Part shown: piece after piece, positions 2,729 through 51,208 of the stretch
Layout: every line of letters begins with the position of its first letter
How positions within the stretch are numbered: position 1 is the first letter of the stretch
Assembly: GCA_964441655.1 (NCBI GenBank)
Contig: CAYTVN010000001.1
Span: 1-58,705 of the forward strand
DNA: 58,705 nt
Source: an uncultured Verrucomicrobiota bacterium
GTDB lineage: Bacteria; Verrucomicrobiota; Kiritimatiellia; CAIVKH01
Reading direction: 5' to 3'
Position numbers and translations under genes: made by a program
Notes under the pieces: model-generated
Databases searched by the model: none
The model's input: only the letters and a program-made list of their open reading frames with translations
What the model was told of the DNA's origin: nothing

Positions 2729-3481
2729 CTACTCCAGATAGCCATCCGCCGGCAGGCCGGGTTTGAACACGCCATCCGGGTTGGGCAGGGTCACCTTGAC
2801 GCGATAGACGAGTTTGGCCCGCTCGTCCGGCGTCTGCGCATTGCGGGGGGTGAATTCGGCCTCCGGCGATACGAAGGTGATGGTGCCGCGGTAATCGGTG
2901 GGATCACCATCCAGCTTCACGCGCGCCGGCGCGCCCAGTTTGACGCGGGCCAGCCGGTCTTCCGGCAGGTAAAGCGAGAGCCATACTTCATCGAGGCGCG
3001 ACAGGGTGACCAGGGGCAATCCGGCATTCACAAACTCGCCCGCCTCCCGCACCTTCGTGGTGATGACCCCCGGGCAGGGTGCGACCACCGTGCCATCGGC
3101 CACCGCCTTCTCCAACTGGGCCAGCCGGGCCGTGGCCTGTAGCGCCGCCGCCTCCGCGTCATCGCGCTGCTGCACCGAGACGGTTTGGTTTTCATACAAG
3201 CGTTTAATACGATCGTATTCCAGCGTGGCACGCCGTGCGGCGGCGCGGGCTTCATCCCGGCGCAGGGCGTGGTCGGTGGTATCCAGCCGGGCCAGCACCT
3301 GGCCCTGGGTAACCGAGCCCCCCTCCTCCACCAGCAATTCGGTGATGCGACCTGCCACCAGCGGAGCCACCTCCACCTGCGTACACTCCACGGTTCCCGA
3401 TCCATCCGCCCGGGGTTTGCCCAGACGGCAACCGGAGCCCGCCAGGCAGAGGGCCAACGCGTACGGGGTAATCTTTTTCAT
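2729..3481 (-). CDS. HlyD-family periplasmic adaptor lipoprotein (YbhG-like)
   Basis: MKKITPYALALCLAGSGC lipobox. Coiled-coil segment (RRDEARAAARRATLEYDRIKRLYE) flanked by beta-barrel-type sequence. Sits upstream of the ABC ATPases and ABC-2 permease. Start chosen at the internal ATG 3481, downstream of the TetR stop. Confidence 0.8.
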   Translation of the reverse strand: MKKITPYALALCLAGSGCRLGKPRADGSGTVECTQVEVAPLVAGRITELLVEEGGSVTQGQVLARLDTTDHALRRDEARAAARRATLEYDRIKRLYENQTVSVQQRDDAEAAALQATARLAQLEKAVADGTVVAPCPGVITTKVREAGEFVNAGLPLVTLSRLDEVWLSLYLPEDRLARVKLGAPARVKLDGDPTDYRGTITFVSPEAEFTPRNAQTPDERAKLVYRVKVTLPNPDGVFKPGLPADGYLE

Positions 3482-40399: not shown

Positions 40400-42220
40400 A
40401 TGGCCGCCCCCCGCACCAGCCTGCTCCGCTACCTGCGCCCCTACCGATGGCAAGCCGCCCTCGGCTTTGTCTGCGTGTCCGGCTACATCGGGACCAGCCT
40501 CTGGACCCCCAGCCTGGTGGGCCGCGCCATCGACGTGCTCCAGGATAAATCCGGCACCGCCCACACCTTCCTCGCGCTCATGGGCCTCTACCTGGCCGCC
40601 GCCGCCGCCGCCTTCCTCGTCTCCATCGGCATGCGCCGGCTCATGCTCGGACTGGCCAACCGGGTGGAACACGACATCCGCCGCGACATCTTCTCCCACC
40701 TGACCGGCATGGACCTCGCCTTCTTCCAGCGCGAGCGCACGGGCGACCTCATGACCAAGATGACGTCCGACCTGAGCGCGGTACGGGAAATGATCGGCCA
40801 GGGCCTGCTGCAGGGCGCGCGCATGACCATCGGCTTCCCCCTCGCCTTTGCCATCATGTTCGCCACCAACGTGCAGCTCGCGCTCGTGGTGACCGCCCTG
40901 CTGCCCCTGGTCAGCCTGCTGTTCTTTTTTCTGATCCGCTGGATCCACAAGTATTACGACGCCTGCCAGGATCAGTTCTCCGCCATCTCCAACTTCGCCC
41001 AGGAAACCTTTTCGGGCATCCGCACCATCAAGGGCTTCGCTCTGGAGCCGCGCCAGCGCGACGAATTCCGCCAGCACAACGAGGAATACATCCGGCGCAA
41101 CATGACCCTGACCCGCATCGAGGAGCCGGTGTGGCCGTTTATGATGTTCCTCTATTGGTTCGCCGCCATGCTGCTGCTGCTGGTCGCCGGGCACCAGATC
41201 ATCGAAGGCACCCTGAAACTCAGCGTGTTTGTGAAGTTTCAGTTCTACCTGCTCTTCCTCCAGTGGCCCATGCTGGCCCTGGGCTGGACCGCCAACCTGT
41301 TCCAGCGCGGACGCACCAGTTGGGCGCGTATCAAAACGATTTTGGAGGCGGAGCCGGCAATTAAAGCGGGGGATGTTAGTTCCACGTTCCAGGTCCAAAG
41401 TTCCAGGTCGGATTTAGCGAGCACTTCGACTTGGAACCTGGGACCTGGGACCCGGGACTTCTCCATCGCGTTTCGCGATGTCAGCCTCCGCCTGAACGAC
41501 CGCACGCTGCTCGATCACATCAACCTCGAAATTCCGCCCGGGCAGTGCCTCGCCATCACCGGCCCCACGGGCAGCGGAAAGACCCTGCTCATTTCTCTGC
41601 TGGTGCGCCTGCTGGATCCCACCGACGGCCAGGTCTGCCTCGGCGGACGCGATCTGCGCACCCTGCCCCTGGCGGACTTGCGCCGCGCCGTCGGATTAGC
41701 CCCCCAGGAACCCTTTCTTTTTTCCGACACCCTGGCCAACAATCTCGCCCTCGGGCTGGATCCGGTGGACGACGCCCTGACCACACACGAGGAGCGCATC
41801 GTACGCGCCGCCGGCATCGCCCGCCTGAGTGACGAGGTGGCCCGCTTCCCCGACCACTACCGCACCATGCTGGGCGAACGCGGGGTCACCCTGTCCGGCG
41901 GACAACGCCAGCGCACCGCCATCGGGCGCGCCCTGGCCCGCGAGCCCGCGCTGCTGATTCTGGACGATGTATTCTCCGCCGTGGACACGCAAACCGAGGC
42001 GAAAATCCTGGAACAACTGCTGCCCGCCCTGCGCGGCCGGACTTCCATCCTGATCAGCCACCGGGTTTCCACCCTGCGCCACGCCGATCGCATCCTGGTG
42101 CTGGACCACGGCCGTATCGTGCAGGACGGCACCCACGCGGAACTGATCGGCCAGCCGGGCTATTACCACGAACTGGACGAAGTGCAGCGGCTGGAAAGCA
42201 AACTTGAAGAGGTCGGATGA
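40400..42220 (+). CDS. ABC exporter, fused permease/ATPase (MdlA/MsbA-type half-transporter)
   Basis: Six-TM domain plus NBD (GPTGSGKTLL, LSGGQRQRTAIGRAL, LLILDDVFSAVD). The TMD-NBD linker is ~20 aa longer than in the partner gene, and the extra length coincides with an ~80-nt hairpin repeat. Confidence 0.9.
   Translation: MAAPRTSLLRYLRPYRWQAALGFVCVSGYIGTSLWTPSLVGRAIDVLQDKSGTAHTFLALMGLYLAAAAAAFLVSIGMRRLMLGLANRVEHDIRRDIFSHLTGMDLAFFQRERTGDLMTKMTSDLSAVREMIGQGLLQGARMTIGFPLAFAIMFATNVQLALVVTALLPLVSLLFFFLIRWIHKYYDACQDQFSAISNFAQETFSGIRTIKGFALEPRQRDEFRQHNEEYIRRNMTLTRIEEPVWPFMMFLYWFAAMLLLLVAGHQIIEGTLKLSVFVKFQFYLLFLQWPMLALGWTANLFQRGRTSWARIKTILEAEPAIKAGDVSSTFQVQSSRSDLASTSTWNLGPGTRDFSIAFRDVSLRLNDRTLLDHINLEIPPGQCLAITGPTGSGKTLLISLLVRLLDPTDGQVCLGGRDLRTLPLADLRRAVGLAPQEPFLFSDTLANNLALGLDPVDDALTTHEERIVRAAGIARLSDEVARFPDHYRTMLGERGVTLSGGQRQRTAIGRALAREPALLILDDVFSAVDTQTEAKILEQLLPALRGRTSILISHRVSTLRHADRILVLDHGRIVQDGTHAELIGQPGYYHELDEVQRLESKLEEVG
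41379..41458. repeat. Heptamer-phased inverted repeat inside the ABC exporter CDS
   Basis: GTTCCAC GTTCCAG GTCCAAA GTTCCAG GTCG, 16-nt loop, CGAC TTGGAAC CTGGGAC CTGGGAC CCGGGAC. Same unit type as 51139-51208. Confidence 0.7.
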
Positions 42221-42286
42221 ACATCGAACGTCGAACGAGTGGTCCACTTCCTTCATCCTTCAATGTTCGATGTTCGATGTTCGAAG
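42219..42286. repeat. Heptamer-phased inverted repeat between the two ABC exporter genes
   Basis: GAACATC GAACGTC GAACG, 27-nt loop, GTTCGAT GTTCGAT GTTCGAA G. Confidence 0.7.
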
Positions 42287-42295
42287 TTTCCTAAC

Positions 42296-45951: not shown

Positions 45952-46077
45952 CCCACCCCTAAATCCCCTCCAAGGAGGGGACTTTCAAGAGAGACAATCC
46001 CCTCCACTGGAGGGGTCCGCGCAGCGGGGGGTGGGTCTCCCCTCCATCGGAGGGGTGGCCGCAGGCCGGGGTGGGTT
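45951..46077. repeat. Cluster of three CCCCTCC-N2/3-GGAGGGG hairpins flanked by ACCCACCCC / GGGGTGGGT
   Basis: Hairpins at 45965-45980, 45999-46015 and 46039-46055. Outer ACCCACCCC at 45951-45959 is complementary to GGGGTGGGT at 46028-46036 and 46069-46077. The cluster fills the gap between convergent genes. Confidence 0.75.
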
Positions 46078-46081
46078 CCTC

Positions 46082-47326
46082 CTACACCAACTGGTCCACC
46101 GCCCGCTGGGCCGCATCCAAATGGGCATCAATCACCACCGGGTTCCCCACGCTGCGACGGGCCGAGGCCACGTCCTTGAGCCCATTTCCGCTGACCAGGC
46201 AAACCGCCGTTTCCCCCGGCTTGATCTTGCCTGCAATGGCGAGGGCACGCAGGCAGGCCCACGACGCGGACGCGGCCGGTTCGGCAAAGACACCGACCCC
46301 GCGCGCCAACTCCGGAATGGCTTCGAGAATGGCTTCGTCCGGAACGGTCACTGCTTCACCGCCGGATTCGATCACCGCCCGCACCGCGGCCAACCCGTCA
46401 CGCGGGATGTCCACGGAAATGGAATCGGCCAGCGTGGTGGCCTGAACGGAATCAATGCCCACGTCGGACCACTTCGGTAGGCCGCCCTTTTTCTGTAGCT
46501 TCCACACGGCATGACTGATGGCTGCGCTCAACTCCGATTGCGCGCAAACCAGCCTGGGCACCGTCGTGGTCAGGCCCATTTCCTTCAATTCACGCCAGCC
46601 CTTCCAGATGCCGCTGATGATGTTGCCGTCACCCGTGCACACCACCATCCAGTCCGGCACCTTGCGGCCCAGCTGTTCCCAGACTTCAAAGCTGCACGTT
46701 TTCTTTCCCTCGCGGGTAAACGGATTGGAACCCGTGTTGCGGTTGAACCAGCCGCGCGCCCGGCATACCTCGGCGCACAGGTCAAACGCCTGGTCATAGT
46801 TTCCGCGCACCGCAATCACCTTGGCCCCGAACACCAGCAGTTGCGCCACCTTGGCTGGCGGCGCGGACTCAGGCAGGAAAATGACGCACGTCATGCCAAC
46901 GCTCGCAGCCAGACAGGCCATGGAGCTGCCCGCATTGCCGGTGGTGGCGCCTGCGATGACCGACGCCCCGCGCTCGCGGGCCACGGCCAGCGCCACCGCC
47001 CCGGCACGATCCTTGAACGATGCGCTGGGATTCTGCCCATCGTCTTTGACCCACACCTGGGCTTCCCCGGCCCGGGCGTCCAGGCGATCGGCCCGGTACA
47101 GCGGGGTCTGCCCGACCCGCACGCGCGGGATCAGGTCCAGTGAACGCAGCGGAAGCAGCGGGGCGTAGCGAAAAATATCGCGGCGATCCAGCCACGGCGT
47201 CTTCGCGGCGGCGGCATAGTCATACACGAGCTCCAGATTCTGCCCGCAGGCCGGGCAGCCGAAGCCGGTAAACGAGGCGGGCTGCGTCGTTTCGCAAGCA
47301 AGACAGCGATACCCTGTTATATGCAT
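46082..47326 (-). CDS. PLP-dependent fold-type-II enzyme of the threonine-synthase family with N-terminal zinc ribbon
   Basis: MHITGYRCLACE...CPACGQ zinc ribbon. PLP lysine context NPSASFKDRAG. TTGNAGSSMA. Confidence 0.75.
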   Translation of the reverse strand: MHITGYRCLACETTQPASFTGFGCPACGQNLELVYDYAAAAKTPWLDRRDIFRYAPLLPLRSLDLIPRVRVGQTPLYRADRLDARAGEAQVWVKDDGQNPSASFKDRAGAVALAVARERGASVIAGATTGNAGSSMACLAASVGMTCVIFLPESAPPAKVAQLLVFGAKVIAVRGNYDQAFDLCAEVCRARGWFNRNTGSNPFTREGKKTCSFEVWEQLGRKVPDWMVVCTGDGNIISGIWKGWRELKEMGLTTTVPRLVCAQSELSAAISHAVWKLQKKGGLPKWSDVGIDSVQATTLADSISVDIPRDGLAAVRAVIESGGEAVTVPDEAILEAIPELARGVGVFAEPAASASWACLRALAIAGKIKPGETAVCLVSGNGLKDVASARRSVGNPVVIDAHLDAAQRAVDQLV

Positions 47327-48323: not shown

Positions 48324-48401
48324 TCTCGCCAAGCCGCAAAGACCGCAAAGCTCGGGAATACCCAGCCGAACCCTCTTTGCGACCTTGGCGTCTTGGCGAG
48401 A
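48324..48401. repeat. TCTCGCCAAG-type inverted repeat in the ygeW/arcC spacer
   Basis: TCTCGCCAAGCCGCAAAGACCGCAAAG, 24-nt loop, CTTTGCGACCTTGGCGTCTTGGCGAGA (27-nt arms). Confidence 0.75.
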
Positions 48402-50595: not shown

Positions 50596-50660
50596 CGTGA
50601 ACCGTGAACCGTTATCCGTAATCCGACAGACGGATCACGGGTTACTGATCACGGATTACC
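50596..50660. repeat. Heptamer-phased inverted repeat in the FeS/FAD subunit spacer
   Basis: CGTGAAC CGTGAAC CGTTATC CGTAATC CG, loop ACAGA, CGGATCA CGGGTTA CTGATCA CGGATTA CC. The last 4 codons and stop of the FeS subunit gene lie in the right arm. Confidence 0.7.
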
Positions 50661-51138: not shown

Positions 51139-51208
51139 GTCCCACGTTTCATGTCCCAAGTTCCAAGTCTATGCCCCGACGTGGGACGTGGGACCTGGGG
51201 CCTTGGAC
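51139..51208. repeat. Heptamer-phased inverted repeat in the Mo/FeS subunit spacer
   Basis: GTCCCAC GTTTCAT GTCCCAA GTTCCAA GTC, loop TATGCCCC, GAC GTGGGAC GTGGGAC CTGGGGC CTTGGAC. The last ~13 codons and the TAG of the Mo subunit ORF lie inside it. Confidence 0.7.

Follow-up and report, generated by a model that had tools for sequence, protein, structure and literature searches.

How does a palindromic repeat come to lie in frame in the middle of a membrane transporter gene? We address this question for a 58,705-nt stretch of DNA from an uncultured Verrucomicrobiota bacterium (Kiritimatiellia, CAIVKH01; GenBank assembly GCA_964441655.1, contig CAYTVN010000001.1, positions 1 to 58,705), referred to below as the window, in which an ATP-binding cassette (ABC) exporter gene contains a hairpin with arms made of tandem 7-nt units. 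The element is a strongly folding repeat copy that lies in frame in a linker predicted to be disordered. With a probability of roughly 0.68, we regard it as a gene-less copy of a lineage-specific foldback family, named GTYCCAN after its repeat unit, i.e., as selfish or neutral DNA tolerated in a permissive ABC linker. Beyond what the original prediction for this locus had recognized, the cassette is old and hypervariable across a genus-level clade, its arms co-vary, and the same arms are found around a PF05635 gene.

An in-frame hairpin in the linker of an ABC exporter

The element and the gene pair to which it belongs comprise the following features, where TMD and NBD denote the transmembrane and nucleotide-binding domains:

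40400-42220, + strand: host ABC half-transporter gene, 606 aa, TMD (PF00664) plus NBD (PF00005), Walker B motif ILDDV
41378-41459, + strand: complete heptamer-armed hairpin element, 82 nt, codons (residues) 327-354 of the ABC gene, in frame
41379-41410, + strand: left arm, GTTCCAC GTTCCAG GTCCAAA GTTCCAG plus GTCG clamp, same sequence in strain L022
41411-41426, + strand: loop of 16 nt, GATTTAGCGAGCACTT
41427-41458, + strand: right arm, CGAC clamp plus TTGGAAC CTGGGAC CTGGGAC CCGGGAC, sequence differing from that of L022
42296-44092, + strand: partner ABC half-transporter gene, canonical Walker B motif ILDEA, 15-aa linker

Arms and 16-nt loop read exactly as had been described for 41379-41458, following the pattern (GTYCCAN)x4-GTCG, 16-nt loop, CGAC-(NTGGRAC)x4. 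One extra base pair on either side of the arms extends the predicted stem to 41378-41459. With 4+4 units, the element conforms to a GTYCCAN foldback, i.e., two arms of 3-5 units that are inverted complements of each other and are separated by a short loop. A strong potential mRNA hairpin had likewise been proposed, and folding of 41370-41470 bears this out: the minimum free energy of the + strand RNA is -54.3 kcal/mol, compared to a mean of -31.9 for shuffled sequences (z = -6.5), and none of 200 shuffles folded as well. The - strand RNA reaches -45.4 kcal/mol (z = -4.4), the stronger folding of the + strand being attributed to G-U pairs. The two-unit pattern GTYCCANGTYCCA, allowing at most one mismatch, is matched 11 times in the window compared to 1.2 expected matches, and all 11 are confined to the ABC-linker element and a second copy at 51139-51208. 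No Rfam family reached its gathering score across the whole window, which also contains no rRNA; the Rfam matches at the element were dismissed as chance miRNA-like hairpins (E values of at least 0.03).

Within the open reading frame (ORF) 40400-42220, the element reads without a stop codon as SSTFQVQSSRSDLASTSTWNLGPGTRD, and the predicted tryptic peptides at the insert are AGDVSSTFQVQSSR and SDLASTSTWNLGPGTR. As claimed, the reading frame is preserved, and the motifs of the gene are conserved. Four of the six frames of the element are open over all 82 nt, and its only stop codons sit in the loop, one per strand in one other frame. Arrays of GTTCCAN, GTCCCAN, GTCCAAN, or GTTGCAN are free of stop codons in all six frames, whatever the seventh base, and it is in part because of this property that a coding copy can be tolerated.

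The host gene encodes a half-transporter of the ABCB/MsbA-like fold, with matches to ABC_membrane (PF00664, 2.2e-45) and ABC_tran (PF00005, 3.8e-26) and with the motifs GPTGSGKT, LSGGQ, and SHR all present. The partner gene starts 76 nt downstream, and the pair is syntenic in every relative inspected. Walker B of the host chain reads ILDDV, without the catalytic Glu, in all orthologs, whereas that of the partner reads ILDEA, which suggests that the pair forms a heterodimeric exporter with one degenerate ATP site. No ABC motif other than this lineage-wide ILDDV is altered, and an alignment of 66 homologs has 130 invariant columns. An AlphaFold2 model of the host chain built on these 66 homologs shows six long helices followed by the NBD (mean predicted local distance difference test score, pLDDT, of 81.9). 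Helix TM6 ends at residue 316, residues 317-355 form a coil, and the first NBD strand begins at residue 356; pLDDT is below 50 over the linker insert (325-351) and otherwise only in two short loops. The linker, which had been proposed to be flexible, is thus predicted as a low-confidence coil between TM6 and NBD strand 1. The encoded spacer comprises about 28 residues and is rich in S, T, Q, G, and P.

The distance from the EPAI motif to the first NBD strand was confirmed as 34 aa in the host chain, compared to 15 aa in the partner. All 19 family-level orthologs (57-70% alignment identity) have a linker about 18 residues shorter than that of the host, although one of them (L011) carries four extra linker residues, and this comparison indicates that the insert is lineage-specific. 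The expected absence of the extra residues from orthologs was thus confirmed, whereas their number was not: the net excess is about 18 aa and not 27, and part of the ancestral linker has therefore been replaced. Neither a homologous linker in distant orthologs nor a split of the gene in this genome, either of which would speak against a coding insertion, was found.

Allelic variation at the linker site

Genus-level relatives were retrieved by a large protein search (73-88% identity, named Kiritimatiellia by their sources), and the DNA was read at each locus. The following alleles were found at the linker site:

L022: near-identical strain from an independent metagenome assembly (ENA ERZ28614954); left arm, loop, and length as in the window, right arm different; in frame
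L025: extra half-array (GTTYCAN)x4-GTCA-GAGAAAGATA 5' of a complete hairpin; in frame, 619 aa
L021: 92% aa identity, on a 2.7-Mb contig; layout as in L025, last right unit of 8 nt, TTTGGAAC
L023: (GTTGCAN)x4 / (NTGCAAC)x4
L024: GTTGCA and GTTCCA units mixed
L029: GTTGCAC units, degenerate
L030: (GTCCCAN)x4 / (NTGGGAC)x5, upstream of a retained ancestral IRGD motif
L026: two left units and one right unit left
L027: a single right unit left
L066: decayed remnants
L028 and L065: no cassette

As judged from these sequences, the series shows that the cassette at the linker site is old, hypervariable, frame-preserving, and common to the genus-level clade. Related in-frame cassettes occupy the same codon position in eight other assemblies. 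The left arm ranges from 0 to 8 units and the right arm from 0 to 5, and linker lengths from EPAI to IAF/IEF are 16, 20, 20, 29, 30, 34, 34, 45, and 48 aa across alleles. Despite differing unit words (GTTCCA, GTTGCA, and GTCCCA), the hairpin persists in seven of eight full-size alleles, with z-scores of -5.1 to -6.5 in six of them (L029, -3.3; L025, -2.2). Decayed alleles yielded z-scores of +1.0 and -0.4 and empty alleles of +1.2 and +0.5. In the switch from GTTCCA/TGGAAC to GTTGCA/TGCAAC, every unit has undergone the same compensatory change. The insert peptide is not conserved between alleles (SSTFQVQSS..., STLQVTRCK..., ELQVPSPKS...), in contrast to the nucleotide palindrome. Orthologs without the extra residues and the empty site in some genus-level relatives agree with the proposed coding insertion that the gene tolerates.

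The frame is preserved in all alleles but L021, the closest sequenced species to the window genome. Here, the anchors are 277 nt apart (mod 3 = 1), and one extra base in the last right-arm unit splits the ABC gene (L021:3001-4864) into ORFs of 419 and 205 aa, the latter without Walker A. The split gene could be either a pseudogene or an assembly error.

The window and L022 are of equal length at the site. Eight of 35 nt differ in the right arm and a 6-nt flank, and about four changes are spread over roughly 1300 nt of the surrounding gene. The L022 gene additionally lacks 78 nt internally, is masked by Ns over a short gap, and diverges more at its 5' end. In a linker-masked tree, element-bearing alleles are not cleanly monophyletic (support 0.85-0.94), so that one gain followed by losses is inseparable from two or three gains.

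A further hairpin shows comparable variation next to the linker site:

42219-42288, + strand: hairpin of GAACNTC / TGTTCGA units that takes up the 76-nt spacer of the ABC gene pair, its first unit overlapping the TGA stop codon

This hairpin has two left units in the window compared to five in L026, L021, L023, and L027; whole units have therefore been gained and lost. In L026, the loop and right arm are identical to those of the window, and in three relatives the two ABC genes adjoin without any spacer. Read across species, the linker site shows arms that gain and lose 7-nt units, switch word, exchange patches, and sometimes decay to remnants, while remaining complementary.

The heptamer hairpin family and its association with PF05635 genes

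The family was surveyed in the 3.44-Mb draft genome (443 contigs, 62% G+C, 85% complete) with an inverted-repeat scanner and a simple gene caller written for this analysis, which called 2814 genes (89% coding). Among 807 inverted repeats, 120 raw matches have arms of period 7, followed by 20 of period 10, nine of period 9, seven of period 8, and five of period 6. Period 7 thus dominates once the 484 repeats of period 3 are excluded, which were set aside as probable GC-rich triplet or coding periodicity, an unchecked assumption. Merging of the period-7 repeats yielded 64 hairpins with the words GTYCCAN, ATCCGTN, AACATCN, GTTGCAN, TNGGAGN, and others. Pattern searches located arrays of GTYCCAN at 49 loci, ATCCGTN at 35, GTTGCAN at 10, TTTCGAN at 8, TNGGAGN at 7, AACATCN at 3, and GGTCNGA at 1, and reversed-word controls gave no match in this genome. 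Three-unit matches of GTYCCAN number 127 (49 loci) here, whereas one relative has 11 and none of 39 others more than three.

That the repeat normally lies between genes, as originally assumed, is supported by 61 of the 64 hairpins, which lie outside the called coding sequences of a genome that is 89% coding, though 36 of the 61 reach 1 to 44 nt into the end of a called gene. Hairpins prefer co-directional and convergent spacers (++ 20, -- 17, +- 16; background 840, 762, and 391) and avoid divergent ones (-+ 5; background 379), which are the longest. Often, hardly any spacer is left over, with 0-13 nt between the hairpin and the flanking stop and start codons. A general sense-strand folding bias was considered and dropped, as 19 of the 32 operon-internal copies favor the sense and 13 the antisense strand; the ABC-linker copy and its sister in the window both fold better on the + strand. 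The sister copy is located as follows:

51139-51208, + strand: sister GTYCCAN copy, into which the - strand gene 51169-53517 runs, with its final 13 codons in the right arm and its stop codon in the loop

The same unit type had correctly been noted for this copy, but it is not purely intergenic, since the - strand ORF ends inside it. This gene (51169-53517) is molybdopterin-enzyme-like, and its last 13 residues, RSKAPGPTSHVGA, derive from the right arm.

Confirmed in-frame coding copies account for two of the 64 hairpins. The second is a 63-nt copy of the ATCCGTN word (L034:735-797, G000:C343) inside QueA, directly after the PLPPYIKR motif; the corresponding loop is variable and 9-13 residues shorter in six orthologs, which have no hairpin copy. 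A third candidate (C78:3591-3677) was discarded, since the 5' part of the secreted-protein ORF that holds it is spurious.

Within single copies, the two arms match more closely than the family consensus alone would predict. For co-variation of the arms, unit position 3 has an odds ratio of 7.2 (p = 2e-6), position 4 one of 24 (p = 4e-7), and the third variable core position one of 4.7 (p = 0.02). At the free seventh base, identity is 0.57 between true partners compared to 0.30-0.36 when the pairing is moved by one or two units (7 or 14 nt). These values are partly inflated, since copies entered the set through their arm complementarity and the pairing register that fitted best was used.

Genes of the PF05635 (S23p) family, which also includes Avd of diversity-generating retroelements, offer a link to a protein. 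Seven PF05635 matches were found in the genome. The best (G000:C201:2940-3254, 125.9 bits, 138 aa) lies between (GTYCCAN)x5-GTC and GAC-(NTGGRAC)x4, the whole cassette spanning 2822-3325 (L042 / L049), with word and clamp as in the ABC-linker element. Inverted period-7 arrays flank five of the seven genes, with both-side scores of 0.71-0.95 (genome 99th percentile, 0.71) and arm complementarity of 0.68-0.88; the two armless genes are the weakest or atypical matches. The four further armed genes lie on contigs C254, C75, C2, and C392 and use other words, and in two of them the right arm codes for the C-terminal tail of the ORF. Taken together, the arm words at PF05635 genes are GTYCCAN, ATCCGTN, TNGGAGN, TTTCGAN, and GGTCNGA. 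The first three recur among the 64 scanned hairpins, GTYCCAN and ATCCGTN being the two commonest, while TTTCGAN arrays occur at 8 loci and GGTCNGA arrays are restricted to their own PF05635 cassette. Of eight inspected homologs of the C201 protein in relatives, seven sit between tandem arrays of 7-8-nt units in inverted orientation, in still other words. The closest (55% identity) has arms of GTCCAAN, a variant also common within the GTYCCAN copies here. No PF05635 ORF lies between the arms of the ABC-linker element, and its 16-nt loop therefore identifies it as a gene-less relative and not as an S23p cassette.

These observations could hint at a two-part system of heptamer-armed hairpins and PF05635 (S23p/Avd-like) genes, in which each S23p paralog would recognize its own 7-nt word and create, maintain, or move arrays of that word, with gene-less hairpins as non-autonomous copies of the system. 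We put this forward as a tentative idea, possible but rather doubtful at present. If true, the ABC-linker cassette would be a rare natural record of the system under frame constraint, dated by the phylogeny of its host gene and covering unit gain and loss, word switching compensated in both arms, and patch replacement.

A link to RAYT and REP elements was rejected. None of the five PF01797 (Y1_Tnp) matches in the genome adjoins heptamer arrays, and one is flanked by GC-rich palindromes. Moreover, a permissive search (at most one mismatch per unit) revealed no conserved GTAG/CGTC tag at the repeat ends: GTAG was present in 10 of 185 arm matches, and only an A at position -1 was enriched. A RAYT-like Y1_Tnp fragment at G000:C93:5474-6093 lies between two copies of the GC-rich palindrome CGGACGGCGACGGAGCGCCGTCCCTACC..., a classical REP-RAYT layout that is distinct from the heptamer hairpins.

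Origin of the insert and relation to known repeats

If the element is selfish or neutral DNA, the insert would be useless to the transporter and perhaps slightly costly, and purifying selection would filter copies for frame and permissive position. Units may be gained and lost by slipped-strand mispairing, and arm complementarity could be due either to correction within the palindrome or to selective maintenance of the hairpin. The family itself may have been created or spread by a factor tied to PF05635 genes, whose products are S23p-type four-helix bundles.

Several points weigh against this reading. No donor for the strain-specific right-arm patch was found elsewhere in this 85%-complete assembly; the best match has 5-7 mismatches, and gene conversion from a resident copy is thus not supported. 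Comparison of filled (window and L030) with empty alleles (L028 and L065) shows linker sequence replaced, with no visible target-site duplication or clean junction of the kind expected for a MITE, although junctions may have eroded between the compared species (74-88% protein identity); the insertion event as such is therefore not demonstrated. An intact hairpin across species of 73-88% protein identity would also be expected of a selected RNA or DNA structure. To these points we add the partial inflation of the co-variation statistics and the nature of the PF05635-heptamer link, which is one of association in the sequences compared.

The main rival to a selfish repeat is a selected cis-regulatory structure of the ABC mRNA, e.g., a pause between the membrane and ATPase domains, a processing site for RNase III or another enzyme, or a stability element, with the peptide as a by-product. 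Co-varying arms and z-scores of -5 to -6.5 in six of eight full-size alleles, despite different words, are in line with such a structure, as are the better folding of the ABC-linker copy on the sense strand (-54.3 compared to -45.4 kcal/mol, via G-U pairs) and the related hairpins that fill operon spacers from stop to start codon in a REP-like manner. However, neither the 19 family-level orthologs nor an entire sub-clade of close relatives, whose genes are intact, have the element, and L026 and L027 have retained the gene with remnants decayed beyond folding. Sense-strand folding is not favored family-wide (19 compared to 13), the same family occurs at about 49 unrelated loci, and DNA-level processes would likewise keep palindrome arms complementary. 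We consider a selected mRNA structure unlikely. Quite improbable, in our view, is a contingency locus, in which changes by 7-nt units or small indels would switch the exporter by frameshift (phase variation). The unit length is not a multiple of three, unit number varies among relatives both at the linker site and in the neighboring spacer hairpin, and the L021 gene (92% aa identity) is split within the right arm. Yet the units are imperfect (variable seventh base and core variants), which disfavors slippage, the window and the near-identical L022 are of equal length, and all alleles other than L021 are in frame; the L021 frameshift is a single extra base (8-nt unit) without a change in unit number and may be an error in a long-contig assembly. 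The signature of a contingency locus, close strains that differ by whole units and thereby in frame, was not found among the alleles compared at this site.

Selection could also act on the inserted peptide, if a longer or specific linker tuned the coupling of the degenerate NBD to the membrane domain. The degenerate ATP site of the host chain (ILDDV compared to ILDEA in the partner) and linker lengths held at 29-48 aa in several species would fit, whereas the peptide sequence is not conserved between alleles although the nucleotide palindrome is, pLDDT is below 50 across the insert, and linkers of 16-20 aa suffice in close relatives; an adaptive peptide therefore appears very improbable. An assembly artefact or a dead gene is scarcely credible. 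The draft is indeed fragmented (443 contigs, 85% complete) and palindromes can be mis-assembled, but the independent assembly L022 shares the left arm, loop, and overall length and is in frame, and related cassettes lie in frame at the same codon position in the eight other assemblies. A dead gene is further contradicted by ABC motifs that are intact apart from the lineage-wide ILDDV and by the 130 invariant columns in 66 homologs.

In-frame palindromic repeats are already known from Rickettsia. Rickettsia palindromic elements (RPE), reported in 2000 by Ogata et al., are said to be a dispersed palindromic family with in-frame copies in protein-coding genes. The element resembles them in behavior only: palindromic copies are in frame, the peptide falls at the surface or in a loop, and the host protein is left whole. 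RPE differ in being 100-150 bp long, in not consisting of tandem heptamers, and in belonging to an unrelated lineage; here, in-frame copies are rare (two of 64), arms consist of 3-5 units of a 6+1-nt word, and a PF05635 gene carries the same arms. RPE are mentioned in PMC1779305 and PMC10969869.

REP, BIME, and REPIN elements with RAYT (Y1) transposases are abundant short hairpin repeats (PMC3333891, PMC3733652). Like these, heptamer hairpins lie mostly between genes of the same operon or convergent genes, are depleted in divergent (promoter) spacers, and evolve fast, but they lack the GTAG/CGTC end tag, and the same architecture of tandem-array arms recurs in them with several unrelated words. 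The intervening sequence (IVS) in the 23S rRNA of Coxiella burnetii bears an S23p ORF, and its stem is excised by RNase III (PMC4990558). The IVS and the cassettes described here, where five of seven such genes have heptamer arms, have in common a gene for a PF05635 four-helix bundle between inverted repeats that pair into a long stem. The ABC-linker element, in contrast, has a 16-nt loop without an ORF and sits in a protein-coding gene and not in a 23S rRNA helix.

Tandem heptanucleotide repeats include cyanobacterial STRR, TAACTGA in Beggiatoaceae (PMC4679880), and GGGAATC / GGGGAYT in Xanthomonas and Nostoc (PMC4692102). They share arrays of 2-6 copies of 7 nt, a mostly intergenic position near start or stop codons, occasional copies in ORFs, and a function that is unexplained. 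TAACTGA arrays include a single inverted case among 170 sets (PMC4679880). These are described as direct arrays and use other words, whereas here the pairing of an array with its inverted complement defines the family. The hairpins also resemble a further class of repeats in filling intercistronic spacers, in ends that overlap the flanking stop or start codons, and in a unit number that varies between strains. This class comprises the MIRU of mycobacteria, 40-100-bp direct repeats with small ORFs, which are not heptamer hairpins. Full-text searches of the open-access literature retrieved direct heptamer arrays, REP, RPE, and the Coxiella IVS, whereas neither hairpins whose arms are heptamer arrays nor an association of such hairpins with PF05635 turned up.

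Compared to the Rickettsia precedent, the present case adds a mechanistic reason for tolerance, i.e., a stop-free GTYCCAN word combined with a disordered inter-domain linker. It also adds a multi-species allelic series at one codon position, which shows the evolution of a heptamer-armed hairpin under measurable frame constraint, and a gene link, since the same arms around a PF05635 gene point to a candidate partner protein for the gene-less hairpin. This link makes the long-unexplained bacterial heptamer repeats experimentally approachable. For genome annotation, such inserts lengthen linkers, add C-terminal tails, and may split genes in close relatives.

Regarding other repeats in the window, two more hairpins were observed, one with tandem-unit arms of TCTCGCC/AAGCCGC... 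words (48324-48401) and one with CGTGAAC / ACGGATC units of the ATCCGTN family (50596-50660). A tandem repeat at 45998-46088, with 2.3 copies of a 40-nt G+C-rich unit (TRF score 103), is unrelated to the heptamer class.

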